A DNA stretch of 64,000 nt, taken from the NCBI GenBank assembly GCA_963727445.1, contig CAVSGI010000013.1, positions 145,316-209,315 of the forward strand. Direction: 5' to 3'. Position 1 is the first letter of the stretch, and the number at the start of each line of letters is the position of its first letter. The position numbers were made by a program, and so were the translations under genes. Source of the stretch: an uncultured delta proteobacterium. GTDB taxonomy: Bacteria > Myxococcota_A > Polyangia > Polyangiales > B10-G4. Below are positions 8,828-58,797 of this stretch, one piece after another. Below the pieces are notes generated by a model that saw only the letters and a program-made list of their open reading frames with translations, had not been told where the DNA came from and searched no databases.

Positions 8828-10015
8828 ATGGGGCGGCGCTACGGCGACTATCGCGAAATCTTCCGCGGGCGACGTCTGCCCCTCGCCTACTGCGACCTCG
8901 CGCTCTTCGACGACAACGTGGCGTCCATCGCCCGGCGCGCCGGGGGCGTCCCCATTCGGGTGGCCAGCAAGTCCATCCGCTGCCGCGCGCTCCTCGAGCG
9001 CGTGCTCGCCCACGACGGCTACCAGGGGGTGATGTGTTTCACCGCGGCCGAGGCTGCGTTTCTGGCGCATGAAGGCTTCGACGATCTCCTCGTCGCCTAC
9101 CCCACCGTCGACGCTGTCGAGGTGCGGATGGCGATGGCGGAGATCGCCCGAGGTAAGCGCATCGTGCTGATGGTCGACGACGTCGCCCAGGTGGACAAGC
9201 TCGGCCCCCTCGCCGAGGAAGGTGGCGTCACCCTCTCGCTCTGCCTCGACGTCGACATGTCGATGAGCCTGCCAGGCCTGCACTTCGGCGTGCGTCGGTC
9301 GCCCATCCGCGATCTCGAAGGCGCCGCGCGCGTCGCCCGCGCCATCAAGAAGCACCCGCAGCTCTCGCTCACCGGCGTGATGGGATACGAAGCGCAGATC
9401 GCCGGGCTCCCGGACGCCGTGCCCGGCAAGGGGCCGGCGATGGCCGTGATCCGCGCGCTGAAGAAGCGCTCCATCGCGCAGCTCACGAAGCGGCGCGGCG
9501 AGATCGTTCGCGGCCTGGTGGAGCGGGGCTTCGAGATCACCTTCGTCAACGGCGGGGGCACCGGCTCGCTCGAGAGCACGCGGCGCGATCCGGTGGTCAC
9601 CGAGCTCACGGCGGGGTCGGGCTTCTTCTCGCCCGCGCTCTTCGACGATTACGCCGGCTTCCAGCACGCCCCGGCGGTGGGCTTCGCGCTGGCCGTGACC
9701 CGCCGCCCGGCGCCGCGGATCGTGACCTGCCACGGCGGCGGCTACATCGCCTCGGGCGCCACCGGCGACGACAAGCAGCCGAAGCCCTACCTGCCCGAGG
9801 GCGCGTCGCTCCTGCCCCTCGAAGGCGCGGGGGAGGTGCAGACCCCGGTCTTGCTCCCAGCCGAGATCGACGTGCCGATCGGCGATCCCATCTTCTTCCG
9901 CCACGCGAAGGCGGGCGAGCTCTGCGAGCGCTTCAGCACCCTTGCGCTCATCGAAAACGGCGTGGTGGAGCAGGACGTGCCCACCTATCGGGGCGACGGC
10001 AAGACCTTCCTCTGA
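8828..10015 (+). CDS. Alanine racemase N-terminal-domain protein (D-serine deaminase / D-threonine aldolase-like, PLP-dependent)
   Basis: The ATG at 8828 (MGRRYGDY...) avoids overlap with the divergent lipoprotein gene. Matches fold-type III PLP enzymes of the DSD1 family (RVASKSIRCRALLERV..., VMGYEAQIAG). Confidence 0.7.
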   Translation: MGRRYGDYREIFRGRRLPLAYCDLALFDDNVASIARRAGGVPIRVASKSIRCRALLERVLAHDGYQGVMCFTAAEAAFLAHEGFDDLLVAYPTVDAVEVRMAMAEIARGKRIVLMVDDVAQVDKLGPLAEEGGVTLSLCLDVDMSMSLPGLHFGVRRSPIRDLEGAARVARAIKKHPQLSLTGVMGYEAQIAGLPDAVPGKGPAMAVIRALKKRSIAQLTKRRGEIVRGLVERGFEITFVNGGGTGSLESTRRDPVVTELTAGSGFFSPALFDDYAGFQHAPAVGFALAVTRRPAPRIVTCHGGGYIASGATGDDKQPKPYLPEGASLLPLEGAGEVQTPVLLPAEIDVPIGDPIFFRHAKAGELCERFSTLALIENGVVEQDVPTYRGDGKTFL

Positions 10016-10302: not shown

Positions 10303-11715
10303 GTGAAGTCTGTCGTGAGCCTGCGGTTCGTCCTGATCGGGGCGATGGGAACGGCGTTGGGAGCCCTGACGCTCTACTTCGCCCTCGAAACCGGGCTCTC
10401 ACCGCTGATCGCCGTGGGCACCGCGCTCGCGCTGGTGTGCCTCCTCGCCATCGGCTGGGGGCGCCGCCTCGACCAGATCGTCGGCTTCCTCAAGGCCCAG
10501 TCCGAGCGCGCCGAGGTGCTGCGGCGCCTGCCGCCCATGGGCACCGACGACATCGGCAAAGCCGCGCGCGGGGTCAACACCATCCTGACCGCCACCACCG
10601 ACGCCAGCGTCGACGCCATCGACAGCTCCCTCGAGCTCGCCGAGAAGGAGCGCGAGCTGGCGCTGGCGGCGGCCCTGCAGGGCAAGACCGCCGAGCTCGA
10701 GAAGCGCCTCGGTGAGCGCGCCCTCCTCTTCGAGCTGCTCCGCGAAGCCACCGAGAACAGCAGCATGGACGAGGTGCTGCCGCCCATGGCCGGCCGCCTC
10801 GCCAAGGCGCTGCGCCTGCGTGAGGGCGCGATCCTGGTGCGCGATGGCGACCGCTTCGTGATCCGCGCCGTCCACGGCTTCTCCGATCCGGAGTCTCTGA
10901 TCGGCCGCTTCATCGAGAAGGGCGAAGGGATCAGCGGCGAGGTCACGGACGCCGCCGAACCGATCGTCATTCGTGACGTCCGCGCCGAGCCCGGCTACCT
11001 CGCGTTCTGGGGCGCTGCCGACAAGAGCGGCAGCTTCGCCGCCGTCCCCATCCGCCAGGGCGAAGAGAATCTCGGCATCCTGGCGCTGACGCGGCCGGAG
11101 GACGATCCCCTCACGGACGTCGAGGTCCGCTTCCTCAGCGCCGTCGCCGCTACCCTGGCTCTCACCATTCACCACATCGCGCTTGTGGACGAGCTTCGCG
11201 AGTCCTCGACCCACGACGAGCTCACCGGCCTCGCCAACCGCCGCCTCCTCGGAGCGCGCCTCGGACGCGAGATCGACCGGGCCCGCCGCTTCGAGTCCTC
11301 CCTCGCGGTGCTGACGCTCGACATCGACCACTTCAAGCAGCTCAACGACCGCTTCGGACACCCCACGGGGGACGCCGTGCTTCGCGACGTCGCGCGGGTC
11401 CTCGAAGAGGGGGTGCGGAGCGTCGACACCGTGGCCCGGACCGGCGGCGAGGAGTTCGTCGTGGTCCTGCCCCGAACCGACGCCGAGGCCGCTCAGCGGG
11501 TCGCCGACAAGCTGAGGGCCCGCATCGCGGCCCACGACATGGCCGGGCTCGGAGGCCAGGCCCAGGTGACGATCTCCCTCGGCGTGGCGGTCCTGACGGC
11601 CGGTGAAAGCGCAGAATCCATGCTGGCGAGGGCGGATGCCGCCCTTTACGAGGCCAAGGAAGCCGGCCGCGACCGCGTCCGTGTCTCCCGCCCCGACGGC
11701 GCTTTCGCAGCCTGA
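10303..11715 (+). CDS. Membrane-anchored GAF-GGDEF diguanylate cyclase
   Basis: GTG at 10303 with AAGAGG 8 nt upstream (ATG alternative at 10345). The tool ORF start at 10027 would run through the tRNA. Two TM segments, a GAF-like region, and a GGDEF domain with the GGEEF active site (RTGGEEFVVVL). Confidence 0.8.
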   Translation: MKSVVSLRFVLIGAMGTALGALTLYFALETGLSPLIAVGTALALVCLLAIGWGRRLDQIVGFLKAQSERAEVLRRLPPMGTDDIGKAARGVNTILTATTDASVDAIDSSLELAEKERELALAAALQGKTAELEKRLGERALLFELLREATENSSMDEVLPPMAGRLAKALRLREGAILVRDGDRFVIRAVHGFSDPESLIGRFIEKGEGISGEVTDAAEPIVIRDVRAEPGYLAFWGAADKSGSFAAVPIRQGEENLGILALTRPEDDPLTDVEVRFLSAVAATLALTIHHIALVDELRESSTHDELTGLANRRLLGARLGREIDRARRFESSLAVLTLDIDHFKQLNDRFGHPTGDAVLRDVARVLEEGVRSVDTVARTGGEEFVVVLPRTDAEAAQRVADKLRARIAAHDMAGLGGQAQVTISLGVAVLTAGESAESMLARADAALYEAKEAGRDRVRVSRPDGAFAA

Positions 11716-11849
11716 TCGGCGTTTTCGCCAACACGGCTGCAACAAAAGCGTCGCTCGCGCATACAGCAGTCGATGAGCGGTCGATCCGCATCACAATTGT
11801 CGGGGGCAACTCGCGCCCCGGGATCGATTGGAGGTAACCTCCAGCGGCC

Positions 11850-18702: not shown

Positions 18703-19506
18703 TCAACCGACGCGCTTCGCGCCGAGGGTGCACGTCGCAAAGTTCCACAGACGTCCGCACTCGCAGCGGACACGAGGAACGGCGGGGACGCGCCGAGCAC
18801 CGCGAAGGATCTTTCGACACGCGGGGCAGCCGAGGGTGATGATCGCGAACCGCCGAGCCCCTGCATACTCGTTGTAGTGCAGCGCGGGCACCCCGTAGTA
18901 GTGCGCGGCGACTTCGAGGATCTCGGAATGGTCGTTCTTGCCCCAGTACATCGGGCCGATGTAGTCGTCCTCGGTTTGGAGGTAGAGGCGGCTACCCCTC
19001 GTGAGGCGAAGCTCGAGCAGACCCCGAAGGCGGCCCGCTGGGAGGAGCTTCGTTCCCTTGATGATGCCGTCGGGGGTGAAGGTCAGCTTGGGCGAAGTCC
19101 GCAGCGCAAACACTGTGATGGCGATGGCGAAGGAGAGCCAGACGAAACCCGTGATGCGCTCGGCGAGGCTCGCGTACGCCCAGCTCTCGAAGAACAACAT
19201 CTTCAGCGGCAAGAACGTGAAGAACCAGGTGACCAGCATCAGGGTCGGGGCGCGCGTGGCCGAATAGACGATGGTGTCGCCCTTCCTTCGCCAGCGCTTC
19301 CCCTTGCCCGCGACCACCCGCCACGCCGCTTCCACGTCGGCGCTAGGGGGATGTGGCCCGAAGAGCGCGTCGCACTCGGTGCAATGACCGATCATTCGCG
19401 TGCCGGAGAAGGCCGACTCGGTATGCCCCGATCCGCAGCTCGGGCAGCGCTGGTGGGGAAGGTCGGAGCGGTAGGGGCCCGCGGCGGCGGCGGTGTCGGC
19501 GCTCAT
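18703..19506 (-). CDS. Membrane protein with N- and C-terminal zinc-ribbon motifs and a PH-like middle region (hypothetical)
   Basis: ATG at 19506 (tool TTG at 19524). CPSCGS...CTEC at the N-terminus and CPAC...CECG at the C-terminus, two or three TM helices, and YLQTEDDYIGPMYWGKNDHSEIL resembling a bacterial PH domain. Confidence 0.5.
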   Translation of the reverse strand: MSADTAAAAGPYRSDLPHQRCPSCGSGHTESAFSGTRMIGHCTECDALFGPHPPSADVEAAWRVVAGKGKRWRRKGDTIVYSATRAPTLMLVTWFFTFLPLKMLFFESWAYASLAERITGFVWLSFAIAITVFALRTSPKLTFTPDGIIKGTKLLPAGRLRGLLELRLTRGSRLYLQTEDDYIGPMYWGKNDHSEILEVAAHYYGVPALHYNEYAGARRFAIITLGCPACRKILRGARRVPAVPRVRCECGRLWNFATCTLGAKRVG

Positions 19507-19601
19507 CTCGGCGAAGTTGGGCAAGGGGCGGGCCAGGAGAACACATCTATAGCCTGGAACGAGTGTATGCGCGAGGCGTCGAGATCTCGCGGACTCGCGG
19601 T

Positions 19602-21380
19602 ATGCTCCCCGCCATGCACGTCGTCGTCGCCGCCGCGACGCCCATCCTCTCGGACGCGATCGCGACGCCGCTGGCTGCGGCGGGGCACGAGGTCGAGCGT
19701 GCGGACAGCGCGGACGCGCTGAGGCAGATCCTCTCGGGCCATCCGCGTCCCGCGGCCGCCTTCATCGCCCGGCGACTCCCGGGAGGGGACGCGCTCACCC
19801 TCAGTCGCGAAGTGGAGGACGTTCCTCTGGTGCTGGTGTCCCCCGACGAGCGGGACCGCGAGGCCGCCCGCGCCGCGCGCCTGGCTGGCTTCATCCACGC
19901 ACCCTTCTCGCCCGGGGACGTGCTGGGAGCGCTGGGCGTGTCGACCCGGCACCAGCGGGTGGTCCTCCTCGTCGACGACAGCGAGCTGGTGCACAAGCAC
20001 ACCGGGCCGATCCTCGAGGAGGCCGGCTACGAAGTGGTGCACGCCTACGACGGCAAGCAGGGCCTGAGCATGCTCGACGAAGCGCGTCCCGATCTGGTGA
20101 TCACCGACGTCGAGATGCCGGAGATGGACGGCTACCAGGTGTGCGCGGCGATCAAGGACGAGCCCGACACCGCGGGCATCCCGGTGATCATCTGCTCGAG
20201 CCTGGGGGAGGCGCGCGACCTCGAGCGCGGCTTCGACGTCGGCGCCGACGACTACATCGTCAAGCCGATCGTCCCCGAGGAGCTGCTCTCGCGCGTGCGC
20301 GACCTGCTGGCGGAGCTGGCGCTCTCGGGACGCGAGCGGGTGCTGGTCGTCGACGATTCGCCGGCCATCCGCCATCTGGTGGGCGACGCCCTCACGCGTC
20401 AGGGCTTCGAGGTGACGACCGCGGTGGACGGACGGGACGGCATGGAACGTGCGCTGGCGGCCTCACCCGCGTACGAGCTGATCCTCACCGACTACGACAT
20501 GCCGCGGATGACCGGCTTCGAGATGGTGCACGCGCTCAAGCGCGAAGCCCAGACGCGCGACACGCCGGTGCTGATGCTCACCGCCCGTGACAGCCGGCGG
20601 GATCGCGCGCAGATGCGCGCCGCGGGCCTCACCGCCTATCTGGTCAAGCCCTTCACTCAGGACAAGTGCGTCGCGATGGTGGAGCGCATGCTCGCCGAGC
20701 GCCGCCTCAAGGCCTACAAGGAGGCCTCCAAGCTCTACATCTCGGACGGCGCGCGCGAAGCGGCCGAGGCGCAGGCCTCGAGCGGCGCGCTCTTCTCCTA
20801 CCGGGCCGACCACCAGCAGATGACGGTGCTCTTCAGCGACCTCTGCGGATTCACGAGCATGTCGAGCGCGATGGAGGCGCCGGAGGTGGTGGAGCTTCTC
20901 AACGGCTACTTCGACGCGATGTGCCCCGTGATCAAGGCGCGCGGGGGAGACATCGACAAGTTCATCGGCGACGCCATCATGGCGATCTTCGAGAAGTCGC
21001 AGGTCTTCGACGAGTCACACATGCTGCGGGCCGCGCGCGCCGCGTGGGAGATGCAGCAGGCGATGGCTGTGTTCAACGCCACCATCGGCAAGGATCCGCC
21101 GCTGCAGATGCGCATCGGTCTCAACACCGGGGATGCGGTGCGGGGCGACATCGGGAGCCGCTACGTGCGTCGCGACTACACGGTGATCGGCGACACGGTG
21201 AACCGCGCGCAGCGCTACGAGTCGAACGCGCCCAAGGGCGGCGTGCTGATGAGCGCCGAGCTCTACGCCCTGATCCAGGAACACGTCGTCGTCGAGCCCC
21301 TCGAGGGGCTCAAGCTCAAGGGGATCGATCGGCCGGTGACGGGTTACGTGCTCAGAGGCTTCGTGGAGGACGACGAGTGA
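19602..21380 (+). CDS. Triple-receiver response regulator fused to class III adenylyl/guanylyl cyclase (CHD) domain
   Basis: Degenerate REC1, then canonical REC2 (LLVDDSE...DLVITDVEMPEMDG...KP) and REC3 (LVVDDSP...LILTDYDMPRMTG...KP), then the CHD domain (MTVLFSDLCGFT, KFIGDAIMAIF, GLNTGDAVRGDIGS). ATG at 19602; the tool ORF extends upstream. Confidence 0.8.
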   Translation: MLPAMHVVVAAATPILSDAIATPLAAAGHEVERADSADALRQILSGHPRPAAAFIARRLPGGDALTLSREVEDVPLVLVSPDERDREAARAARLAGFIHAPFSPGDVLGALGVSTRHQRVVLLVDDSELVHKHTGPILEEAGYEVVHAYDGKQGLSMLDEARPDLVITDVEMPEMDGYQVCAAIKDEPDTAGIPVIICSSLGEARDLERGFDVGADDYIVKPIVPEELLSRVRDLLAELALSGRERVLVVDDSPAIRHLVGDALTRQGFEVTTAVDGRDGMERALAASPAYELILTDYDMPRMTGFEMVHALKREAQTRDTPVLMLTARDSRRDRAQMRAAGLTAYLVKPFTQDKCVAMVERMLAERRLKAYKEASKLYISDGAREAAEAQASSGALFSYRADHQQMTVLFSDLCGFTSMSSAMEAPEVVELLNGYFDAMCPVIKARGGDIDKFIGDAIMAIFEKSQVFDESHMLRAARAAWEMQQAMAVFNATIGKDPPLQMRIGLNTGDAVRGDIGSRYVRRDYTVIGDTVNRAQRYESNAPKGGVLMSAELYALIQEHVVVEPLEGLKLKGIDRPVTGYVLRGFVEDDE

Positions 21381-24369: not shown

Positions 24370-24534
24370 TCCCAAGCCCTCCACGCGCAAGGAAGGATGC
24401 TGCCTGATCGCTCAAAATGACGCAATGGTTGCCAACGGTGAGTCACCGCTCGCGGGGTGGGTGTGTGTGCGATGGTGCGGCGACCCGTCGCGGCATGGGT
24501 GCGGGCCGTGAACGCTATCGTATACTCACGCTCC

Positions 24535-25824
24535 GTGCGTCGCTTCAGCCTCCCGCTCGCCGCCGTCTTGCTCCTCTTCACCACGTCGATGGGGTGTGGC
24601 GACGACACGACAGTGGTGGTGGACTCGGGGGTCGTCGATGTCGACACCGGCGTCTCCATGGACACCGGCACGACGATGGACTCGACCACGTCCATGGATA
24701 CGGGCACGACGATGGACAGCGGGGTCGAGGACACGGGGGTCGTCGACACCGGCCCCGAGGACACCGGCCCCCCGCCCTTCGGCCTCGAGACCCTCGTCTA
24801 CAACGAGGACTGCGTCGTCGAGGTGGTCAACCCGGACGAGACCATCGACGTCGCGATGAACATCTCCGAGACCGGCTGCTACACCGACGCGGTCGCCAAG
24901 ACCGTCGCCTCCTCCCTGGTCCCCTTCTCGATCAACTCGCCGCTGTGGACCGACGGCGTGTCGAAGCGACGCTTCTTCGCGATCCCGCCGGGCACCCACG
25001 TGGGCTATCGGGGTGACTACTCCTGGCTCTGGCCGGTGGGGACCATCCTCATGAAGGAGTTCATCCTCCAGACGGACGAGAGCGATCCCGACTCGAACTT
25101 CGTCCTCGAGACGCGCTTCCTCGTGAAGTACGACCCGCGCTTCTGGCGCGGCTACAGCTATCGATGGAACGCCGAGGGCACCGACGCCACGCTGGTGATG
25201 AACGGGACCATGGACACCCTCGTCGACTACGAGGTCACCGACACCAGCGGCGGAACGTACATGCACACTCACGTCTTTCCGGCGCGAGTCACTTGTCTTC
25301 AGTGTCACGCCCCGCGCGCCAACGGCGGCAACGGCACTCAGACGGCGCAGCTGAACCGCGACTTCGACTACACCGCCTGGGGCGGCACCGTCGACAACCA
25401 GATCCGCACCTTCGAGCACATCGGCCTCTTCGACGCTCCTCTGCCCGGGGCTCCGGAGGACCTGCCGCGGATGCCCAACCCCTCGGACACCAGCGCCTCC
25501 CTCGAAGAGCGCGCGCGCGCCTATCTCCACGCCAACTGCGCCCACTGCCACCGCGAGAACGGCTCCGCCGTCACCTCGACCCTGTGGATCCCCTGGGAAT
25601 ACACCCTCGAAGACAGCAACGCCTGCATCGGGCGCGACTCGGGGAGCACGCCGGGCGACATGTGCGAGACCCTCGACGTTCGCATCGTGCCCGGCGACTC
25701 GATGGGCTCGCTGATCCGCTGTGTCATGGAGACGGGTGCCATGCCGCCCGTCGGGACCTATGTGGCCGATCCGGCCCGACAGGTCGTCTTCGACTGGATC
25801 GACTCCCTCGCCTCATGTCCATGA
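24535..25824 (+). CDS. Putative c-type cytochrome lipoprotein (two CxxCH motifs)
   Basis: CLQCH and CAHCH haem-binding motifs. Lipobox TTSMGCG. Start ambiguous: GTG at 24535, ATG at 24472, or tool GTG at 24457. Confidence 0.65.
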   Translation: MRRFSLPLAAVLLLFTTSMGCGDDTTVVVDSGVVDVDTGVSMDTGTTMDSTTSMDTGTTMDSGVEDTGVVDTGPEDTGPPPFGLETLVYNEDCVVEVVNPDETIDVAMNISETGCYTDAVAKTVASSLVPFSINSPLWTDGVSKRRFFAIPPGTHVGYRGDYSWLWPVGTILMKEFILQTDESDPDSNFVLETRFLVKYDPRFWRGYSYRWNAEGTDATLVMNGTMDTLVDYEVTDTSGGTYMHTHVFPARVTCLQCHAPRANGGNGTQTAQLNRDFDYTAWGGTVDNQIRTFEHIGLFDAPLPGAPEDLPRMPNPSDTSASLEERARAYLHANCAHCHRENGSAVTSTLWIPWEYTLEDSNACIGRDSGSTPGDMCETLDVRIVPGDSMGSLIRCVMETGAMPPVGTYVADPARQVVFDWIDSLASCP

Positions 25825-26354
25825 GCCCGAAACCGCGCCCGGCTGCCCCGACCCCCGTCCTGGTCGCCGTTGGAATGCTGCTCGCGCTGCCCCTGCTCGT
25901 CGCGCCGAAGTGCTTCGACTACGACGGCGCGCCGCCGGTCGTGGATTCCGGCATGCCCGATGCCACGATGATGGACGGCGGGGCCATGACCGACGCCGCC
26001 GTGGACGGCGCCGTGGACGCTCCCGTCGACACGGGACCGGACTTCGTCCCCGCCGTGCCCTGCCCCGAACCGAACACCGCGGTCTTCCTGATCCGAAACC
26101 TGGCCTACAACATCGTCTGCGGCTGCGCCGAGGCGGAGGGCCGGGCGTGTACCGTGCCCCGGGGGACCACCATCATCTGGAACTTCGCCGACGGCGTGCA
26201 GCACAACGTCAGCCCCGTGGAAGACTCCTTCATGCGCTCCACCGATCGGGTCAGCGGTCGGTACGTCCAGACCTTCATGGAGCCCGGGACCTACGGCTAC
26301 GGTTGCACCCTTCATCCGAGCGAGATGAGCGGGTACTCGCTCGTCGTCGAGTGA
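25821..26354 (+). CDS. Cupredoxin (type-1 blue copper protein, plastocyanin/amicyanin-like)
   Basis: ATG at 25821 overlaps the upstream stop (ATGA); ATG at 25815 is an alternative. C-terminal copper-ligand pattern GTYGYGCTLHPSEMSG (Cys-x2-His-x4-Met). Leader PLLVAPKCFDYD. Confidence 0.7.
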   Translation: MSPKPRPAAPTPVLVAVGMLLALPLLVAPKCFDYDGAPPVVDSGMPDATMMDGGAMTDAAVDGAVDAPVDTGPDFVPAVPCPEPNTAVFLIRNLAYNIVCGCAEAEGRACTVPRGTTIIWNFADGVQHNVSPVEDSFMRSTDRVSGRYVQTFMEPGTYGYGCTLHPSEMSGYSLVVE

Positions 26355-26436
26355 ACGACCGCGCCCTCGCCTGATCGAAGCGTCCGCGGCCGTGGTGGCC
26401 TTGCCGGCGGACGGGGCGTCGTTACGGGCGCTTGTG

Positions 26437-27642
26437 ATGGACACCGACACGACGACGGAGCCGCCCCGCCGCGGGCGCCGCGTTGTCGTTCTGCGCTACG
26501 TGGCGACGTTCGCAGTGTTTCTCACCGTGCTCGGCGTGCTGGCCGGCATCAAGGGCTGGCAGATCACGACGATCGTCGCCTTCGCCGAGGATGCAGAACG
26601 GCGCGGGCCACCGCCGGATGCGGTGGCGGCGACGACCCTCTCCGAGGAGGCGTGGGAGGACCGGCTCGAGACGGTGGGGACGCTCTCGGCGCGCCAGCGC
26701 GTCGCGCTCACCAGCGAGGTGGCCGGGGAGGTGGTGCGCATCGCGTTCGACTCCGGCGACGTCGTGGAGCGAGGCGATGTGCTGGTCGTCCTCGACTCGG
26801 CGACGGATCGCGCCGACCTACGCTCGGCGGAGGCCACTGCGGAGCTCGCGGAGCTCATGGCGAATCGCACGGATGAGCTCGCCGGGCGCGGCGTCGTACC
26901 GGTCGAGGACCGGGAGCAGGCGGTCGCCGATCTCGAGACGACGCGCGCGCGCGTCTCTTCCCTGCACGCGACGCTCGCGAAGAAGACGATCCGCGCCCCC
27001 TTCTCCGGGCGGCTCGGGATCCGCAACGTCGACCTCGGTCAATACATCGCGCCAGGCACGGTGCTCACGACGCTCACGGACGCGGAGGGGACCTTCGTGG
27101 ACTTCACGATCCCCCAGGACGAGCTCGCGAGCGTGAGCCTCGGCCTGCCCGTCCGACTTTCGGCCGACCGAATCACCAGCGACGTGTCGGCGACGATCGC
27201 CGCTATCGAGCCGGACGTGGATCGGAGAACGCGTGCGGCGCGGATCCGGGCGGTGCTCGAGGGCGACTCCGAGCAGCTTCGACCGGGCATGTTCGTCGAC
27301 GTCCAGGTGGTGCTCCCGACGCGGCGCACCGCGATCGCCGCGCCCGTCACCGCCGTCGTGCACGCACCCTATGGAGACTCGGTCTACGTCCTTTCGGAGC
27401 TGCCCTCGGACGCGCCCGGCATGCGGGAGACATCCGACGGAGAGCCCATCTTCCTGGCGCGACAGACGTTCGTGCACACGGGTCGGACGCGCGGAGACTT
27501 CATCGAGATCGAAGGCGGCGTGGAGCCGGGCGCGCGGGTCGTGACCGCTGGCGCCTTCAAGCTCCACGACGGCTCGCACGTCTACCTGAGCGAAGACGTC
27601 GCTCCACGTCCGGAGCTCGAGCCCACGCCCGAGAACCGGTGA
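26437..27642 (+). CDS. RND efflux periplasmic adaptor (membrane fusion protein, HlyD family)
   Basis: Single N-terminal TM, a coiled-coil hairpin, then beta-barrel/MP-proximal domains. Immediately upstream of the RND permease. Confidence 0.8.
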   Translation: MDTDTTTEPPRRGRRVVVLRYVATFAVFLTVLGVLAGIKGWQITTIVAFAEDAERRGPPPDAVAATTLSEEAWEDRLETVGTLSARQRVALTSEVAGEVVRIAFDSGDVVERGDVLVVLDSATDRADLRSAEATAELAELMANRTDELAGRGVVPVEDREQAVADLETTRARVSSLHATLAKKTIRAPFSGRLGIRNVDLGQYIAPGTVLTTLTDAEGTFVDFTIPQDELASVSLGLPVRLSADRITSDVSATIAAIEPDVDRRTRAARIRAVLEGDSEQLRPGMFVDVQVVLPTRRTAIAAPVTAVVHAPYGDSVYVLSELPSDAPGMRETSDGEPIFLARQTFVHTGRTRGDFIEIEGGVEPGARVVTAGAFKLHDGSHVYLSEDVAPRPELEPTPENR

Positions 27643-27646
27643 ACGC

Positions 27647-30600
27647 ATGAAGTTCGCTTACCTCTTCCTCAGGCGACCGACGTTGGCGATCGTCCTGAAC
27701 GTCTTGATCGCCGTCGGTGGCATTCAAGCGATCCGGTCTCTCAGCGTCCGCCAGTATCCGAAGACCGAAAGCGCGACGATCGTGATCCGCACGGCGTACA
27801 TCGGTGCGAACGCCGACCTCGTGCGTGGATTCATCACGGTTCCCATCGAGCGCGCCGTGGCAGCCGCGGACGGCATCGACTACATCGAATCGCAGAGCGA
27901 GGAGGGCTTCTCGGAGATCGACGTGCGGCTGCGCCTCAACTTCCCGGCGACCGATGCCCTCGCGGACATCAGCTCCCGCGTCGATCAGGTGCGCGCCGAC
28001 CTGCCACCGGAAGCAGAGATCCCGACGATCACCATCGAGCCATCGGACGCACAGGTCGCGGCGATGTACATGAGCTTCGCTTCGTCCGAGTTCGAAGACA
28101 ACGAGATCACCGACTACCTGGTTCGTGAGGTCCAGCCGAGGCTCTCGGCGCTTCGTGGCGTCCAGCGCGCCGACATCCTCGGTGGTCGCACCTTCGCGAT
28201 CCGGGCGTGGCTCGATCCCGACCGAATGGCGGCGCTCGGCGTCGCGCCCGCCGACATCCGACGGGCGATCGGGGAGAACAATTATCTGGCAGCCGTCGGG
28301 GAGACGAAGGGTGCGCTGGTGCGCATCGATCTCACGGCGTCGACCGATCGGCGGTCGCTCCAGGAGTTCCGGGATCTCGTCGTCCAGAGCGATGGGGACA
28401 CGCTGGTACGGCTCTCCGACGTCGCCAACGTGGAGCTGGGCTCGGAGGACTACGATCAGGAGGTCCGGTTCTCCGGGGACGAAGCGATCTTCATGGGCGT
28501 TTGGGTCCTGCCGAACGCGAACACGCTCGAGGTGATCCAGCGCGTGCGCGCCGAGATACAGGAGGTCGAGCGGGAGCTGCCCGCCGGGATGCAGGCGCAC
28601 ATCGCGTACGACTCGACGGTCTACATCGAAGACGCGATGACCGACGTCTTCGACACGCTGCTCGAGACGATCCTCATCGTCGTCATCGTCATCACGGCGT
28701 TCCTGGGCTCTCTGAGGAGCTCGATCGTCCCGGTGATCGCGATCCCGCTGTCGCTCATCGGCGCCGTGTTCCTGATGCAGCTCTTCGGCTTCACCCTGAA
28801 CCTCCTGACGCTCCTCGCGGTCGTCTTGTCGGTCGGGCTGGTGGTCGACGACGCGATCGTCGTGGTCGAGAACGTCGATCGCCACATTCGCTCGGGGGAA
28901 TCGCGCACCCGCGCCGCAGTCAAAGCCGTTCGCGAGCTGGTCGGCCCCATCATCGCGATGACGGTCACGCTCCTCGCCGTCTACGTGCCGATCGGCTTCC
29001 AGGGCGGGCTGACCGGCGCGCTCTTCCGCGAGTTCGCCTTCACCCTCGCCGGGGCGATCTTCATCTCCGGCATCGTCGCCCTCACGCTCTCTCCCGTCAT
29101 GTCGGCCAGACTCCTGCCCGACGAGCCCGGACGCGTCGCTCGCTGGATAGCCGGGCTCTTCGAAGCCGTTCGGCTCCGGTACGTGCGCGTGCTCGACACC
29201 TCGCTTTCGATGCGACCCGCGGTCTACATCGTGTGGATCGGGCTCTCCCTCTCGACGATCCCGATGTTCATGTTCTCTCCCGTGGAGCTCGCGCCTCAGG
29301 AGGATCAGGGCGTCGTCTTCACCACCCTCGACGTCCCCGCCAACGCGTCGCTCGAACGCATCGCGAGCTGGTCACACGCGATCCAGAGCATCTTCCAGAA
29401 GGATCCCGACTACGACCACAGCTTCCAGCTCACCACGCCCAACGGAGGATTCGGCGGCTTCGTCGCCGTGCCGTGGTCTCGACGCACCCGCACCGTCTTC
29501 GACATGCAGCGTTCGATCGGCGAAGAGACGAAGGCCCTCGCCGGTGTACGCGCTCCGATGTTCCTCAGGCCCGCGCTCCCGAGTCCGGGGACGATGCCGG
29601 TCGAGGTCGTGATCACGTCGACGGCCGACCATTCGGAGATACAGCACTTCACGCAGGAGATCACCGACGAGGTGGCAGAGAGCGGGCAATTCGCGTTTCC
29701 CCCGCTCTCGAACGTGCACATCGATCGTCAGAGGAACGACTTCGTGCTCGACCGAAACCAGCTCGCGACCATGGGCATCACCATGCAGACCGTCGGCCGC
29801 GACCTCTCGTCGATGCTCTCCGGAAACTACGTCAACCGCTTCTCCCTGGACGGACGCGCTTACGAGGTCATCCCCCAGATCCAGCGAAGCTCGCGCCTGA
29901 GCCCGGAGCAGATCGAGCGGGTCCACGTCACCGGACCGGACGGCACCCTGGTGCCGCTCGGCGCCGTCTCGGCGCTTCGCCAGCACGTCGAGCCCCGAGC
30001 GTTGCCCCGCTTTCAACAGCTCAACGCGATCAAGCTCTCGGGCATCCCCACACGCTCGCTCGACGACGCGCTCACCACGATCGAGCAAGCCGCCGCCGAC
30101 ACGCTGCCCCCCGGCTATCACGTCGACTACACGGGTGAGTCCAGGCAGCTCCGCGAAGAGGGCGGCAAGTTCCTGCCCGTCTTCGGCCTCGCCATTTTGG
30201 TCGTCTTCCTGGTGCTCGCCGCGCAGCTGGACTCGTTTCGCGACCCTTTCGTGATCCTCGCGGGCTCGGTTCCGCTGGCGCTCTTCGGCGCGCTCATCTT
30301 CACCTTCCTGCACTTCGACGGACCGCCGGGCGTGCACTTCGGACTGACCGAGGGGTGGACCACGACGATGAACATCTACTCGCAGGTGGGTCTGGTCACG
30401 CTCGCCGGGCTCATCTCGAAGAACGCGATCCTCATCGTCTCCTTCGCAAACGAGCGGCAGAAGGAGGGGCTGTCGAAGGTCGATGCGGTCAGGGACGCAG
30501 CGTCGACGCGCCTGAGGCCGATCCTCATGACCACCGCCGCGACGGTGGCGGGTCACTTTCCGCTCACGCTCGTCACTGGTCCCGGCGCGGCGGCGCGAAA

Positions 30601-30733
30601 CTCGATCGGGATCGTGCTGGTCGGCGGAATGGCGATCGGAACGCTCTTCACCCTCTTCGTCGTGCCCTCCGTCTACGTCCTCGTCGCCAAGACGCGGAGC
30701 AGCCGCACGGAGCCGGAGCCAGGGCTCGGCTGA
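27647..30733 (+). CDS. RND efflux transporter permease (AcrB/HAE1 family)
   Basis: 1028 aa with 12 TM helices and canonical AcrB N-terminal sequence (MKFAYLFLRRPTLAIVLNVLI...). Confidence 0.9.
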   Translation: MKFAYLFLRRPTLAIVLNVLIAVGGIQAIRSLSVRQYPKTESATIVIRTAYIGANADLVRGFITVPIERAVAAADGIDYIESQSEEGFSEIDVRLRLNFPATDALADISSRVDQVRADLPPEAEIPTITIEPSDAQVAAMYMSFASSEFEDNEITDYLVREVQPRLSALRGVQRADILGGRTFAIRAWLDPDRMAALGVAPADIRRAIGENNYLAAVGETKGALVRIDLTASTDRRSLQEFRDLVVQSDGDTLVRLSDVANVELGSEDYDQEVRFSGDEAIFMGVWVLPNANTLEVIQRVRAEIQEVERELPAGMQAHIAYDSTVYIEDAMTDVFDTLLETILIVVIVITAFLGSLRSSIVPVIAIPLSLIGAVFLMQLFGFTLNLLTLLAVVLSVGLVVDDAIVVVENVDRHIRSGESRTRAAVKAVRELVGPIIAMTVTLLAVYVPIGFQGGLTGALFREFAFTLAGAIFISGIVALTLSPVMSARLLPDEPGRVARWIAGLFEAVRLRYVRVLDTSLSMRPAVYIVWIGLSLSTIPMFMFSPVELAPQEDQGVVFTTLDVPANASLERIASWSHAIQSIFQKDPDYDHSFQLTTPNGGFGGFVAVPWSRRTRTVFDMQRSIGEETKALAGVRAPMFLRPALPSPGTMPVEVVITSTADHSEIQHFTQEITDEVAESGQFAFPPLSNVHIDRQRNDFVLDRNQLATMGITMQTVGRDLSSMLSGNYVNRFSLDGRAYEVIPQIQRSSRLSPEQIERVHVTGPDGTLVPLGAVSALRQHVEPRALPRFQQLNAIKLSGIPTRSLDDALTTIEQAAADTLPPGYHVDYTGESRQLREEGGKFLPVFGLAILVVFLVLAAQLDSFRDPFVILAGSVPLALFGALIFTFLHFDGPPGVHFGLTEGWTTTMNIYSQVGLVTLAGLISKNAILIVSFANERQKEGLSKVDAVRDAASTRLRPILMTTAATVAGHFPLTLVTGPGAAARNSIGIVLVGGMAIGTLFTLFVVPSVYVLVAKTRSSRTEPEPGLG

Positions 30734-54030: not shown

Positions 54031-55692
54031 TCAATCGTCGTCGTCGGATCCCCGACCCAGGAGCGCGTCTCGCCAGACGTGGAGCGCCGCGACGAGCGAC
54101 GCCGTGCCGGCGACGGCGCCCGTGGTCAGGGTCAGCCAGTCGAAGCGGGGCGAGTAGAGCTTCTGGCCCCACCAGGAGAGGATGTCGAAGGGGCCCGTCA
54201 AGAGCAGGCCCGCGATCACCAGCGCCTTCAGGCGCCCACTCGCGCCGGACATGCTCAACAGGAGCGCGAGCACGCCGTAAGTGACGGTGTAGCCGAAGAG
54301 GTGGCTGTGGCTCGTGCCGAGCAGGCGCGCCTCCGAGAGCCGCTGGAAGTAGCTGAAGGTCGAGTCGCTCACGACCTGGGTCTGCACGTAGGCGTCGGTG
54401 ATGGCGACGAGCTGCGCGAGCATGAGACCAAGCACGATCAGCGAGAGCGCGAGCCGCACCTCGCCGGGCATCTCGCGGAGGCGAGGCCAGCGCGCCAGCG
54501 CCTTCTGCCTCTGCGCCCACCCCGCCGCGACCCAGATCGCGCCGAGATAGAACGCGATCAGGAGAAGGACCAGGATGGTGGCGGTCGACGCCGGCATCAT
54601 CGACGCCTCTCCGTCCGCCTCCACCGCCTCGAAGCGCAGCGCGGTCTCGCCCGTCGCGCCACCGTCCGTCTCGGCCGCGGCCCCCGCGTCGTCGCCGGCG
54701 CTCTCTTCGCTCGCCGCCGCCTGCGCCGCGAGATGCGTGGCGACGACGTACAGCACCTTCCGCACCTCGTCGCGGATCGCCCGCTGCACCGCTTCGCGAC
54801 CTTCGATCACCGGACAGTCGCCTTCACCAGGTTCGGGCAGCGCGTCCTTCGGCTGACCTGCGAGACAGCGCAGGTACGGGATGTAGAGGTCGCCCTCCTC
54901 CCCCGGCGCCCGAAAGATGATCACCCGCGACGCGGTGCCGTCACGCGCGACCGCGGTCAGCAGGGCGTACTTGCCGCGCTCGTCCCGCAGGTGATGGAAG
55001 ACCGCCACGCCGCGACGACGGTCGCGCACCACGTTGAAGTAGAGCGTCGGCAGACGGTCCTCGACGTCGAGCGTCGCGCCCACCGCCTCCTCGACCGCCG
55101 CGATCTCGGCGTCGTCGAGCTCTACCTCGGCTGCCTCGATCCGTGACAGATCGTCGAAGACCAGCTCGAGCTGCTCGATGGGGATGAAGAGCTGCGATTT
55201 GCTCGCCTCCCACCGCTCGGTGGGGTTGTCCGGCGTGCTCTCGCGATCCCCCGGGTTCGAGCCGGCCTCGATCTCCGCGAGGTTGGCGAAGCCGTCTCGA
55301 TCCGAGTCCACCCCTTCGATCGCCCGGAAAGCGTCCAGGTCCTCGCCCCGGCGGTGCCACGCTTCACCGTAGGCGTTCCGCTCGGTGTTGCCGTCGTATC
55401 CATGGCAGAGCTGACAGCTCGTCGACGCACCGTAGGCCTCCTTGAAGAGGCGACGGTGCACGGGATACGCGCTCGCACGACCGGCGAGGCCGACCCACAC
55501 GACGACGACCACGAGGGCGAAGAGACTATTCGTCGCCCGCGTCGCCGCGGTCTTCGCGCGGCTCTTCGCGCGGCGCTTCGCGCCGGCCTTCGCGTCGGCC
55601 TCCGCGCCCGCCTCCGCCCTGACCTTCGGCCCGGCTGTTCTCCTCCGCGAGGTTCCGCGCGAAGTTGAGGAAGAGGATGATTTCGCGCGCAT
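54031..55692 (-). CDS. Membrane-anchored c-type cytochrome with Ca-binding (thrombospondin-type-3-like) segment and C-terminal TM region
   Basis: CQLCHG just after a hydrophobic signal/anchor. DSDRDGFANLAEIEAGSNPGD motif. Several C-terminal TM helices. The 5' end is uncertain: the N-terminal 45 aa (K/R/A-rich) overlap the next gene out of frame. Confidence 0.55.
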   Translation of the reverse strand: MRAKSSSSSTSRGTSRRRTAGPKVRAEAGAEADAKAGAKRRAKSRAKTAATRATNSLFALVVVVVWVGLAGRASAYPVHRRLFKEAYGASTSCQLCHGYDGNTERNAYGEAWHRRGEDLDAFRAIEGVDSDRDGFANLAEIEAGSNPGDRESTPDNPTERWEASKSQLFIPIEQLELVFDDLSRIEAAEVELDDAEIAAVEEAVGATLDVEDRLPTLYFNVVRDRRRGVAVFHHLRDERGKYALLTAVARDGTASRVIIFRAPGEEGDLYIPYLRCLAGQPKDALPEPGEGDCPVIEGREAVQRAIRDEVRKVLYVVATHLAAQAAASEESAGDDAGAAAETDGGATGETALRFEAVEADGEASMMPASTATILVLLLIAFYLGAIWVAAGWAQRQKALARWPRLREMPGEVRLALSLIVLGLMLAQLVAITDAYVQTQVVSDSTFSYFQRLSEARLLGTSHSHLFGYTVTYGVLALLLSMSGASGRLKALVIAGLLLTGPFDILSWWGQKLYSPRFDWLTLTTGAVAGTASLVAALHVWRDALLGRGSDDDD

Positions 55693-56002
55693 CAGCTCGT
55701 TCGATTTCCGAGTTCGGCTTGCGCATCATCCGGGTGACGTAGCGTCGAATGCCCTCTTCGTCGAAGGTCCCACCCGTGACGGGGGTGATGCCGGTGTTGA
55801 GCGCCCGGATGGGACGCGCCATGGCGTGACACTTCGTACATCGCTGCGCGAAGATATCGTAGCGGGGTCGGAACTCAGGCGGAAATTGCTCGCGCACCAG
55901 ACGCTGTCGGCGGCCGCGCCCGACCGTTTCCAAGTCGGCGTTCGCGGTGGATGCGGCGCCGGCCCAGGCGACGATCGTCGCGGTCATCACCGCGAGGATC
56001 AT
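55526..56002 (-). CDS. Small secreted c-type cytochrome with low-complexity R/E/G-rich tail
   Basis: ATG at 56002 gives MILAVMTATIVAWAGAASTANA (signal peptide). CTKCHA haem motif. Confidence 0.55.
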   Translation of the reverse strand: MILAVMTATIVAWAGAASTANADLETVGRGRRQRLVREQFPPEFRPRYDIFAQRCTKCHAMARPIRALNTGITPVTGGTFDEEGIRRYVTRMMRKPNSEIERADAREIILFLNFARNLAEENSRAEGQGGGGRGGRREGRREAPREEPREDRGDAGDE

Positions 56003-56040: not shown

Positions 56041-56952
56041 TCAGGACAAGAGCTCGAAGGCTCCCGAACCGATCTTCACCGGCTCGTCCGGCGCTTCGAG
56101 CTCGACCCCCAATCCCAAATTGAACGACAGCTGGACCCAGAGCGTTCCCTGCCCCAACTCGGGCCGGACCACCACCGCCAGGCACCCGCCTCGCTCGCGC
56201 AGGCGGCACTCCGGTCCGTACAGGAGCAAGGGCGCGCCGTGGCTGAGCTTGACCCCCTGGCGAATGAACCACGCCTTCATGTAGCCGAAGATGTGATTGG
56301 CGAGCTCGCCAGCCACGTCCTCGAGCTCCGCCCGGCTCGGCTCGTCCGGGCTCTGCAGTGTGCGCCTGCGGATGCCCGAGAGCGCCGCATCGTCGCCCGT
56401 GACCAAACACCAGCCCGAGAGCTTCGGGCCCGAGAAAGGAACGATGGCTGCGGTTGCTGCGAACATGAGCTGATTGGCCTTGAAGCACTCCTTGGCTTGG
56501 CTCACCGGGCTCTTGAAAGCGCCCTCGAGCGCGCCGACCGCACAATCGTGAAGCGCACGAACGATCGGCGGGCTGTAGACGTCGAAGCGGAGCAGGTCGC
56601 GAATGGCTTCGGAGAGGGCATCGGCGGTCGGGTTGGGAAGGATGCGATCGGGTGGAAAAGCCCCGAACCTTCCCAGCGCCACCGCCTGGCCCAGCCAGAC
56701 GATCCGCAGAGTCGGATCGAGCCTTCGTAGCTCTGAGACGAGCTTGGCGCCCTCGGATTCACCGACGCGCCCATCCACCACGACCAGCGCCAGGTCGGGC
56801 AGCGATTCGACTCGAGAAACCGCTGCGGGCACCTCGACCAGCTCGACCTCCAGACCGGAGAGCGCGGCCAGCCCCCGAGTGATCTCTTCCCCCAGCTCGG
56901 ACGCGTTGGTGACCAGGAGGGTGCGGATGATGGGTACGGGTTCGGCGCTCAT
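56041..56952 (-). CDS. Receiver-like domain fused to CheX/CheC-family CheY-P phosphatase domain
   Basis: ATG at 56952. N-terminal REC-like fold lacking the canonical DD pair. The C-terminal domain carries the CheC/CheX active-site motif DxxxExxN (DVAGELAN). Confidence 0.6.
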   Translation of the reverse strand: MSAEPVPIIRTLLVTNASELGEEITRGLAALSGLEVELVEVPAAVSRVESLPDLALVVVDGRVGESEGAKLVSELRRLDPTLRIVWLGQAVALGRFGAFPPDRILPNPTADALSEAIRDLLRFDVYSPPIVRALHDCAVGALEGAFKSPVSQAKECFKANQLMFAATAAIVPFSGPKLSGWCLVTGDDAALSGIRRRTLQSPDEPSRAELEDVAGELANHIFGYMKAWFIRQGVKLSHGAPLLLYGPECRLRERGGCLAVVVRPELGQGTLWVQLSFNLGLGVELEAPDEPVKIGSGAFELLS

Positions 56953-56988
56953 GATCGAAGAACGAAGGTACCTCAATTCAGCGACCGA

Positions 56989-58308
56989 TCAGGGCACTAC
57001 GGTGATCACGTCGTGCATCCCAGCGCCGGCGTGGCCAGTGGTCAGGTCCGGAGCCCCATTGGGTGCATGTGTGACGCCGATCGCACAATAGATCTCGTAC
57101 TCGCGTGCGACGGTGGGGACCGCGAGGAGCTGCAAGCGCTCCCCCGGCGCGATGACCGCCCCTCCGAAATACGGGGCTCGCACCTCGACGTCCGCGTCGA
57201 TCGCCGCCCGCATCACCGAGTCGGTGAACATGCCGAGGGCCGTGAAGTCGTGACGGAAGCGATTGGTCGGCTCGTTCTGCAGCTCGATGACATAGCCCAC
57301 GTCCCTGGTGAAGGTCCGCGTGGTCCAGTTGAAGGTGAAGCGGCTCTCCCCCGTCATGGGGTCGAGTCCCTCCTGTGCGACCACGCCGACCAAGACGGAG
57401 GACGCCATGTCCCAGACGGGATCCGATGCGTATCGACGGGGATCCGTGTCCAGCGCGGCGGGGCGATCGGGATCCTCCCCCTGGAACACGGTGAGGTCGT
57501 CGCTCCCCGCGCTGACGGTGATGGTCAGCATCATCCCCTTGCCGGCGTCACCGGTCGCGAAGTCCGGTGTGACGCTGCCGTCGAGGATCTCCGCATAGCG
57601 GTCGCCATCGGTGACCCCCACCGAAGACCACGCCGTGAACGTGCCGGACTCGATGGGCACGAAACGGATGGAGGCCCTGTGCTCGGTGGCCGCATCGAAA
57701 CGCGGCGCGACCGCGTCGATGGTCGGGCCCTCGTAGGCGCCCGAGTTGGTGAGGACGTCGCGATAGGCGATGGCGCGGAAGAACGCGGGTGCCGTCAGGT
57801 CGTGGGCCGCCGTGGCCGTTCCGTCGCCGGGCGACACGACGTGAAGGGTCACTGGAACGGCGGGCTCGAAGGTGAGGTCCGCCGGCGCTCCGGTCTCGTC
57901 GGTCACCTCGAAGGTGCTCGTCGACGCATCCGGATCGCGGAAGGTGACGGTCCTCTCCACGGCGTATTCGTCCCAGTCGTCGCGCCAGTAGGCCCAAGCC
58001 GCCGCACCGTCGCAGCGAAGCGCACGACAGGCAGCGTCGATCATCCCTTCGGGCGTGGGCAAAACGATCATCCCGGTGTCGATGGGCGGAGTCGTATCCG
58101 CCGCGTCGGGGGCGGCGTCCGGCATCGCCTCGGGCGCGGTATCGGCCGGGCCACTGTCCACCACGGCGTCCATCCCGCTGTCGACCGGACCGGTATCCGG
58201 AGGGGGCGGGGCGTCGTAGTCGAAGCACTTGGGCGCGACGAGGAGTGGCGTCACGGCGAGCACGACCGTGACGAGAGCCAAGCCAGAGGGCGCGCGACCA
58301 GTGGACAC
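56989..58308 (-). CDS. Secreted cupredoxin-like protein (C-terminal type-1 copper site) with PLLVAPKCFDYD leader
   Basis: The leader LAVTPLLVAPKCFDYD is near-identical to that of the cupredoxin at 25821. The C-terminal YEIYCAIGVTH...GM has a Cys/His/Met spacing consistent with a blue-copper site. Confidence 0.6.
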   Translation of the reverse strand: MSTGRAPSGLALVTVVLAVTPLLVAPKCFDYDAPPPPDTGPVDSGMDAVVDSGPADTAPEAMPDAAPDAADTTPPIDTGMIVLPTPEGMIDAACRALRCDGAAAWAYWRDDWDEYAVERTVTFRDPDASTSTFEVTDETGAPADLTFEPAVPVTLHVVSPGDGTATAAHDLTAPAFFRAIAYRDVLTNSGAYEGPTIDAVAPRFDAATEHRASIRFVPIESGTFTAWSSVGVTDGDRYAEILDGSVTPDFATGDAGKGMMLTITVSAGSDDLTVFQGEDPDRPAALDTDPRRYASDPVWDMASSVLVGVVAQEGLDPMTGESRFTFNWTTRTFTRDVGYVIELQNEPTNRFRHDFTALGMFTDSVMRAAIDADVEVRAPYFGGAVIAPGERLQLLAVPTVAREYEIYCAIGVTHAPNGAPDLTTGHAGAGMHDVITVVP

Positions 58309-58428: not shown

Positions 58429-58794
58429 ATGCCATCCATCCTCATCGTCGACGACTCGGCCATCGTTCGTACCCAGGTTCGCAAATGCCTCGAGGACTCC
58501 GGATACGAGATCACCGAAGCGCCCGACGGCCGCGCCGCACTGGCCACCGCCTCCGCGGGTAAGTTCGATCTCGTGGTCACCGACCTGCACATGCCCGGGA
58601 TGGATGGTCTTTCGCTGGTGGAAGAGCTTCGCGGCAGGGACGCGTACGCGAAGATCCCGATCTTCGTGCTCACCACCGAGACCGACACCGACGTGATCAG
58701 CAAGGGGCGCGAGATCGGCGTGACGGCATGGGTCACCAAGCCCGTGCAGCCCGATGTGCTGCTCAACGGCGTGCGCCTGGTCCTTCCGGCCTGA
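58429..58794 (+). CDS. Single-domain CheY-like response regulator
   Basis: ATG at 58429 (the tool ORF's upstream extension was rejected). LIVDDS...[14 protein letters not shown]...TKP receiver motifs. 121 aa. Confidence 0.8.
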
Positions 58795-58797
58795 TCC

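Follow-up and report, generated by a model that had tools for sequence, protein, structure and literature searches.

The membrane-tethered cupredoxins include lipid-modified azurin (Laz) and AniA of Neisseria, the auracyanins of Chloroflexus, and the halocyanins of haloarchaea. Auracyanin is the electron acceptor of alternative complex III (ACIII) (PMC7439408). This report concerns two predicted copper proteins, encoded by open reading frames A and B (ORF A and ORF B) in a 64-kb stretch of DNA from an uncultured delta proteobacterium (hereafter the window, meaning the whole stretch of 64,000 nucleotides that was analyzed), and a short peptide, or tag, that both carry at the junction between leader and linker. 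The two proteins and their relatives (families A and B) resemble the tethered cupredoxins in having a type-1 copper domain on a flexible, low-complexity linker that extends from an N-terminal anchor, and in the setting of a periplasmic electron carrier beside cytochromes. In contrast to the window proteins, the known tethered cupredoxins have either a canonical lipobox or a plain transmembrane (TM) helix. We know of no tethered cupredoxin with a K-C-x-x-Y junction, and of none whose anchor sequence recurs on another copper protein to which it is unrelated.

Two further kinds of described system are close to the tag: the lipobox of bacterial lipoproteins and the sorting residues that follow the lipoprotein Cys. 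Lipoproteins of the Sec/signal peptidase II type (Sec/SPII; Lgt, Lsp, and Lnt) have the same basic n-region, short hydrophobic stretch, single invariant Cys at the end of that stretch, and long disordered linker before the domain. The tag differs from them in its invariant Lys at position -1 (the motif Cys is numbered +1 throughout), in its Ala or Gly at -3, and in extra invariant residues after the Cys (hydrophobic at +2, Tyr at +4, and Asp at +5). As to sorting, Asp at +2 is the Lol avoidance signal of Escherichia coli, and in Bacteroidota a surface-export signal lies after the lipoprotein Cys. In Myxococcus xanthus, Lys at +2 directs lipoproteins to the inner membrane and Ala at +7 to the matrix (PMC3222651). 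Like these signals, the tag is a short, conserved, acidic-rich stretch right after the junction Cys that differs by lineage; however, the known signals are loose preferences found on many lipoproteins, whereas the tag consists of five to eight near-invariant residues, including a Tyr, on two families only. The lipobox consensus is [LVI][ASTVI][GAS]C (PMC10920655; PMC3222651). Atypical lipoboxes include CVSC of Ycf48, with Cys at -3, which has been verified by mass spectrometry (PMC8038367), and FLNC of CIM-1, with Phe, Leu, and Asn at -3, -2, and -1, which is predicted only (PMC10920655). Both are, like the tag, family-specific departures from the consensus that are kept within a lineage; yet neither has a charged residue at -1, where the tag has Lys. 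In the literature, no precedent was found for a charged residue at lipobox position -1, and no description of a K-C junction was found.

The two window proteins share the 12-residue peptide PLLVAPKCFDYD exactly, at the end of a Sec-type leader in both (coordinates in Table 1), and a disordered linker follows it in both. An earlier note on this DNA had pointed out the leader peptide common to the two ORFs, and the alignment confirms it: BLASTP aligns only the N-termini of the two proteins (residues 9-74 of ORF A with residues 6-60 of ORF B, 29/66 identical or 44%, E = 6e-9), and the mature domains show no significant similarity. The almost identical stretch is shorter than the roughly 25 residues that the note had given. 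Twelve residues match exactly and 13 of 16 are identical over positions -6 to +9, but what resemblance follows is gapped and of low complexity (VDSGM..DA). At the DNA level, the likeness is confined to one sharply bounded tract of 48 nucleotides (nt), 42 of them identical, and the three differences within the 36 nt of the motif are all at synonymous third positions. A six-frame search of the window returned no third copy of the peptide. The relaxed patterns KC[FIVLM]x[YFW] and C[FIV]xY[DENQS], sought after a hydrophobic stretch in all frames of the window, gave no further case.

Seventeen leaders from both families were compared. Lys at -1, Cys at +1, Tyr at +4, Ala or Gly at -3, and Phe, Ile, or Val at +2 are each present in all 17, while Asp at +5 is present in 15 and Pro at -7 in 14; the consensus tag is P-x-x-x-[AG]-[PSTG]-K-C-[FIV]-x-Y-[D]. 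The residue at -3 is Ala in 14 leaders and Gly in three, and the aliphatic residue sits at -4, which leaves a lipobox-like triplet ([LVM]-[AG]-[STGP]) standing one residue away from the motif Cys. In family A, APKCFDYD is invariant in eight orthologues that are 65-73% identical. In conservation, this block equals the copper-ligand loop of the same proteins; the n- and h-regions and the linker are variable in both length and sequence. Family-B orthologues carry APKCFEYQ, APKCIDYD, GTKCIDYS, GSKCVNYD, and GSKCVSYD. The distant members of family A have ASKCVDYDPRLF (P0019, on contig L018) and SAGKCVGYDERLA (contig L019, 8304..8750; 41% identical to ORF A, E = 2e-30), and the core K-C-x-x-Y is kept in both families down to 38-44% identity. 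With APKCFDYD invariant in eight orthologues and K-C-[FIV]-x-Y in 17 of 17 leaders, the sequence comparison shows a peptide shared far beyond chance.

The distribution of the tag was assessed with a 35-column leader profile, searched with HMMER against 1.84 billion cluster representatives (E <= 1e-3), and with exact DNA scans for APKCFDYD (GCNCCNAARTGYTTYGAYTAYGAY) in 185,579 species genomes and in the metagenomes of the Joint Genome Institute (JGI). The profile search gave five matches: two family-A representatives, one family-B representative, one fragment of 47 residues (LMAPKCIDYDP), and one tandem-repeat protein. The tandem-repeat protein (P0018; 142 residues) has seven copies of LLGPKCVHYS and the best score against the leader profile, and is a repeat artefact. 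A profile this short needs about 38 bits for significance at this database size, and a third family that shares the five-residue core alone would be missed. In a leader context, the exact scans returned only family-A orthologues. Neither window copy is among the species-genome matches though both fit the pattern, which places the source organism outside the 185,579 representatives. With 69% GC, lipoprotein linkers rich in Asp and Gly, and numerous sensor kinases, the window may resemble Myxococcota DNA.

The exact scans also found the octapeptide inside an unrelated, cytoplasmic-looking family of about 390 residues from bacteria of about 50% GC (NRRAPKCFDYDPPPL; L001 1536-1559, L002, L005-L009, L013, and L015, e.g., L007 8582-8605). 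There it has a non-leader context and is followed by PPP, in which it resembles ORF B; these proteins end in a C-terminal hydrophobic tail and have no Pfam match. Because the search space is very large, the context is different, and the GC content is near 50%, the octapeptide of this family is probably a chance 8-mer that was fixed there. No other exported protein of the window or of the related loci scanned (L012, L016, and L018-L022) bears the motif. Since the profile search and the exact scans gave the leader-context motif only in families A and B, the motif is, within the limit of profile sensitivity and on the sequences searched, a two-family junction tag rather than a general sorting signal. 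The broader proposal of the earlier note, a dedicated signal for periplasmic copper proteins in general, is not supported by the window and the related loci scanned. The motif is a specific peptide under selection rather than a generic signal peptide.

Several features of the leaders are those of lipoprotein signals: the n-regions have one to five Lys or Arg, the uncharged stretch is 14-23 residues long, and the motif Cys lies at residues 22-33. The uncharged stretch is 14-17 residues long in seven of the 14 K-C leaders measured; it is 14-17 in lineages II-IV and 19-23 in the Pro-containing lineage I. A length of 14-17 residues is what cleaved leaders usually have, and it would not suffice for a stable TM anchor. 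The residues next to the Cys depart from the lipoprotein pattern. Where Sec/SPII processing takes Gly, Ala, or Ser at -1 and Leu, Val, or Ile at -3, all 17 leaders have Lys and Ala or Gly, so the Cys (A-P-K-C in the window) stands outside the classical lipobox, as the earlier note had observed. A cut by signal peptidase I (SPase I) after the invariant Ala or Gly would fit the -3/-1 rule of that enzyme, with Ala or Gly at -1 of the cut in 17/17 leaders and Leu, Val, or Thr at -3. This is the only SPase I-like site, and in 12 of the 17 leaders, both window proteins included (L-V-A then Pro), it is followed by Pro at +1, against the rule of no Pro there; the Pro had likewise been noticed before. 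Pro at +1 reportedly blocks SPase I (E. coli LepB), as Barkocy-Gallagher and Bassford and also Nilsson and von Heijne are said to have found in 1992.

At least five other proteins of the window have canonical lipoboxes (the cut is marked by a slash): LVGC/GDE, LASC/TAD, VSAC/PDS, LVGC/ATD, and SMGC/GDD. The family-B homologue on L018 also has a textbook lipoprotein leader, MKPRFASLVLATACAVNLLAAC followed by FDNERP, whose canonical LAAC lipobox places its Cys where BLAST aligns the motif Cys; in this it agrees with the Sec/SPII lipoproteins. Pfam and NCBIfam have no model for the N-terminal tag. A twin-arginine translocation (Tat) signal was considered and rejected: the window proteins have no RR pair (MSPKPR..., MSTGR...), and the RR pairs that occur sporadically in relatives come without the S/T-R-R-x-F-L-K consensus.

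The label "cupredoxin-like" is reasonable for both proteins, and the earlier description of both as exported copper proteins of the cupredoxin fold probably holds, on profile evidence for ORF A and on a predicted structure for ORF B. ORF A scores 21.0 bits against Pfam Copper-bind (PF00127; gathering cutoff 21.2), and the NCBIfam halocyanin and amicyanin models match it below cutoff. A profile of the eight family-A orthologues matches a copper nitrite reductase cupredoxin domain in the PDB (E = 6e-8), as well as a blue copper domain protein (1e-7) and amicyanins (5e-5 and weaker, to 1e-4). The type-1 copper ligand set His...Cys-x2-His-x(2-4)-Met is present, and the putative ligands H128, C162, H165, and M169 are invariant in the eight-orthologue alignment (C162-T-L-H165-P-S-E-M169). 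The AlphaFold2 (AF2) model of family A, made from eight sequences, is poor, with a predicted local distance difference test (pLDDT) score of 40 overall and below 50 for residues 22-109.

By sequence, ORF B has no match in Pfam, NCBIfam, or the PDB, and one relative matches Pfam Cupredoxin_1 below cutoff. The AF2 model of ORF B has a mean pLDDT of 62; residues 112-439 are mostly above 70, and residues 1-111 are disordered except for the leader helix. In Foldseek, this pLDDT-62 model matches copper nitrite reductases and laccases/multicopper oxidases with E ~1e-12 and probability 1.0 but a TM-score of only ~0.2. The putative copper site in the C-terminal domain is composed of H353, C408, H426, and M431, and C408...H426-x4-M431 is invariant across family B. 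The loop from Cys to His in this putative type-1 site is unusually long (C408-x17-H426-x4-M431; 56989-57090 on the minus strand), compared with two to four residues in classical cupredoxins. In the first cupredoxin-like domain of ORF B (residues ~225-260), the copper ligands are gone (WSSVGV...TGDAGKGM, with Cys changed to Ser and His to Asp), whereas the L018 homologue (10520-11803) has ligands in both domains (YCNTAV...AGHAGKGM). Because of this difference, as read from the sequences, the window ORF B probably binds one copper and its distant L018 homologue two.

The two families also differ in their other Cys residues. Besides the motif Cys, family A has four other invariant non-ligand Cys and the ligand Cys; family B of the window lineage has a CxxxxC pair and the ligand Cys, and the motif Cys is the unpaired one. 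Lineage-III family-B proteins have one extra Cys in the linker, within [DE]-C-L-P-P-E-P (L019 1627-2886; L020 601-1854), which ORF B of the window lacks. In every member of family A, the first strand is closely preceded by P-C-P-x-P, the Cys of which is invariant (C81 of ORF A, 26061-26063). The P-C-P-x-P of family A and the [DE]-C-L-P-P-E-P of lineage-III family B may be a second feature common to the two families.

Comparison of the leaders within and between genomes indicates that the tag tracks lineage, not family. On L019, the A and B proteins are identical at 9/16 residues over positions -6 to +9, and both have KCVxYDERL. Across lineages within one family, identity over the same positions is only 5/16 (family A, window against L019) and again 5/16 (family B), which is lower than the A-B identity within the window or within L019.

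Our favored account, which we hold tentatively and with a little less than even confidence, derives the tag from a lipoprotein site and takes it to be a tether that is recognized by a factor common to both proteins and specific to the lineage. ORF A and ORF B would be exported by Sec-type leaders with a basic n-region and an uncharged stretch of 14-23 residues; each leader would end in the tag, followed by a long disordered linker rich in acidic residues, Pro, and Gly and then by the copper domain or domains. The tag would take the place of a lipobox together with its post-Cys sorting residues, and most likely derives from such a site. The invariant Cys would hold the mature protein at the membrane surface, most likely via a lipid after non-canonical processing. 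A single factor, specific to the lineage and acting as processing enzyme or as docking partner, would recognize the invariant Lys, the hydrophobic residue at +2, Tyr at +4, and Asp at +5 and so keep both cupredoxins in the same place. Parallel change of the tag in both families would follow from the reading of both by this one factor. Cleavage, lipidation, and the shared reader are what we infer; what the sequences themselves show is the motif, how well it is conserved and that it is limited to two families, its co-variation, the linkage of the A and B genes, the lack of a gene-conversion signal, and the L018 lipobox.

Several observations are counted in favor of this account, among them the invariance of the tag, the short uncharged stretches in half of the K-C leaders measured, the co-variation between the families, the codon evidence against DNA exchange, and the linkage of the A and B genes. 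The order of leader, Cys, disordered linker, and domain is that of the canonical lipoproteins of the window. The canonical lipobox of the L018 homologue, at the same Cys, connects the motif with an anchor site of the lipoprotein kind. The motif Cys would be free for a tether because it is the odd one out in the Cys set of window-lineage family B. Other points weigh against this account. Lys at -1 and Ala or Gly at -3 contradict every described lipobox, and the Lys rules out a canonical one. An invariant Lys at -1 is also hard to explain under plain signal-peptide removal, unless it is a recognition element or is retained in the mature protein. No paralogue of Lgt or Lsp and no other candidate enzyme is found among the Pfam-annotated ORFs of the window, in which several ORFs have no match and the region at ~37.9-41.0 kb is unannotated. 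The extra linker Cys of lineage-III family B could pair with the motif Cys. Co-variation is not absolute, as the two L018 partners differ in tag (ASKCVDYD in A, LAAC then FDNE in B), and it was assessed on only three within-genome A/B pairs.

Four other explanations were weighed against the lipoprotein-derived tether. That the likeness has no shared function, and is a by-product of short-tract gene conversion or of a recent duplication of a 5' cassette, is highly improbable. The sharp bounds of the 48-nt tract and its 42 identical positions would suit such an event, as would the identity of nine out of ten core codons and the fact that window B fits the invariant version of family A better than its orthologue P0010 (APKCFEYQ) fits that version. 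However, codon identity in the window motif is at the background set by codon bias (9/12 identical against 6.9 expected from local codon usage, P = 0.17), and the codon identity of window A with window B (9/14) equals that of window B with family-A orthologues of other organisms (9/13, 10/12, and 9/14). L019 has its own shared variant, in which A and B show four synonymous differences in eight shared codons, and conversion alone cannot account for an invariance of K-C-x-x-Y that reaches so deep in both families. Since the codon comparisons give no sign of gene conversion, selection is seen, at the level of these codons, to act on the peptide, and the conversion account is already largely refuted. 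The main rival, a functional alternative that dispenses with the lipid, is somewhat less likely than the tether. SPase I would cut after the invariant Ala or Gly, between -3 and -2; where Pro follows, the leader would stay as a signal anchor, and K-C-hydrophobic-x-Y-D would be an amphipathic beta-strand handle by which both cupredoxins dock on a shared partner or are joined by an intermolecular disulfide (A to B, or to a partner). The Leu, Val, or Thr at -5 and Ala or Gly at -3 in all 17 leaders, together with the helix-breaking Pro at -7 in 14, form a good SPase I c-region, and the lineages with Pro at +1 of the cut have the longest uncharged stretches, which fits an uncleaved anchor. Hydrophobic residues at +2 and +4 that alternate with polar ones at +1, +3, and +5 suit a beta-strand, the invariant Lys is explained if it stays on after maturation, an intermolecular disulfide requires just such a single conserved Cys in the periplasm, and the A and B genes are neighbors elsewhere. 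Yet Pro at +1 in 12 of 17 leaders means that a single invariant motif would sit in two topologies, an uncharged stretch of 14-16 residues anchors poorly, and the true lipobox of the L018 family-B protein at the same Cys argues for a lipid-anchor site.

Two explanations remain. It is improbable that K-C-[FIV]-x-Y-D is the substrate signal of an undescribed N-terminal maturation route outside the Lgt/Lsp rules, one that has only the cupredoxin pair as clients and co-evolves with them; examples would be a dedicated peptidase that acts at or beside the Lys and is coupled to Cys modification, or a cross-link among Cys, Lys, and Tyr. Still less probable is a metal-handling or cofactor arm, in which Cys, Tyr, Asp, and Lys would capture copper for loading of the cupredoxin or form a copper-dependent Cys-Tyr or Lys-Tyr cross-link. 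The motif does occur on copper proteins only, its invariant Lys, Cys, Tyr, and Asp are all potential ligands or cross-link partners, and the flexible linker would let such an arm reach the domain. Nevertheless, a single Cys without His or Met makes a poor copper site, no known consensus for copper binding or quinone cofactors is matched (Pfam and NCBIfam give no N-terminal match), the motif lies at the membrane end of the linker, away from the domain, and the L018 family-B homologue has neither the Lys nor the Tyr, yet keeps both copper sites.

Families A and B are linked in distant relatives. On L018, a family-A gene lies directly before the family-B homologue (38% identity over the full length, E = 3e-72). 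On L019, B and A are about 5.4 kb apart in one same-strand cluster, in the order response regulator, unknown, B, cytochrome-like, TM protein, Hpt-kinase, small cytochrome c, CheX, and A. Because they are adjacent or in one cluster in these relatives, A and B are probably, on this gene order, partner redox proteins of one module. In the window, the two ORFs lie about 31 kb apart (Table 1). The stop codon of the cytochrome gene upstream of ORF A overlaps the ORF A start (ATGA, 25821-25824), an arrangement that suggests translational coupling. In L017 and L023, what directly precedes family A is a gene similar in size to this one or part of a gene, not assigned to the SO2930 family. A conserved link of ORF A to the downstream RND/CusB efflux genes was considered and rejected, as these are present in L017 and absent after the L023 orthologue.

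The ORF B neighborhood recurs in the window, L016, and L019-L022, with a response regulator, B, CheX, a small cytochrome c, and an Aq_1264_TM-type membrane protein. Relatives of the small cytochrome have the motif RCTKCHAMARP (L019 6968..7384; L020 5938..6423), and neighbors annotated as PF27139 (Aq_1264_TM) are found in L016, L020, L021, and L022. This uncharacterized conserved cluster (54031-61836 in the window; L016, L019-L022) also includes a PAS histidine kinase, and its membrane protein has a CXXCH motif. From its gene content, it looks like a redox- or copper-linked signaling module. Elsewhere in the window, an ORF at 19347-21380 (plus strand) has two response-regulator receiver domains fused to an adenylate/guanylate cyclase domain, and the canonical lipoprotein at 6945-9038 (minus strand; cut LVGC/GDE) has an IgGFc_binding domain (Pfam E = 1e-63).

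Table 1. Coordinates of ORF A, ORF B, and their neighbors in the window (aa, amino acids).
Feature	Position (nt)	Strand	Remarks
ORF A, 177 aa: Sec-type leader, junction motif, disordered linker, type-1 (blue) copper cupredoxin domain	25821..26354	+	amicyanin-like
ORF A junction motif, P24-L-L-V-A-P-K30-C31-F-D-Y34-D35	25890..25925	+	Cys codon 25911-25913
ORF A linker, Asp/Gly/Pro/Ala low-complexity, residues ~36-76	25926..26048	+	length and sequence variable in orthologue alignment
ORF B, 439 aa: leader, junction motif, disordered region of ~80 aa, two cupredoxin-like beta-sandwich domains	56989..58308	-	
ORF B junction motif, P-L-L-V-A-P-K27-C28-F-D-Y-D	58213..58248	-	Cys codon 58227-58225
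SO2930-family dihaem cytochrome c, canonical lipobox S-M-G-C	24457..25824	+	TIGR03806 E = 1e-61; upstream partner of ORF A
HlyD/CusB-type membrane fusion protein	26392..27642	+	downstream of ORF A
RND pump	27590..30733	+	downstream of ORF A and membrane fusion protein
Response regulator, divergent from ORF B	58429..58794	+	Pfam Response_reg E = 6e-28; same neighbor in L016, L019, L022
CheX-domain protein, directly downstream of ORF B	56041..56976	-	Pfam CheX E = 8.5e-7; same in L016, L019, L021, L022
Small c-type cytochrome (CTKCH), ORF B cluster	55526..56002	-	similar proteins in L019 and L020
Protein with CQLCH haem motif near N-terminus, start codon not fixed	54031..55725	-	in place of Aq_1264_TM-family neighbor; no Pfam match

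The finding is narrow in scope and concerns two families of proteins from a small number of uncultured lineages with high GC. Cupredoxins tethered to the membrane have been described before, as have atypical lipoboxes peculiar to one family, and the K-C junction adds to these. The rules for lipoproteins and signal peptides are used to annotate every bacterial genome, and an invariant Lys before the junction Cys falls outside them. If ORF A and ORF B are lipidated, the accepted specificity of the lipobox for a small residue at -1 would not be universal. If they are not lipidated, the tag would be a rare, co-evolving N-terminal address by which two redox partners stay side by side at the membrane.

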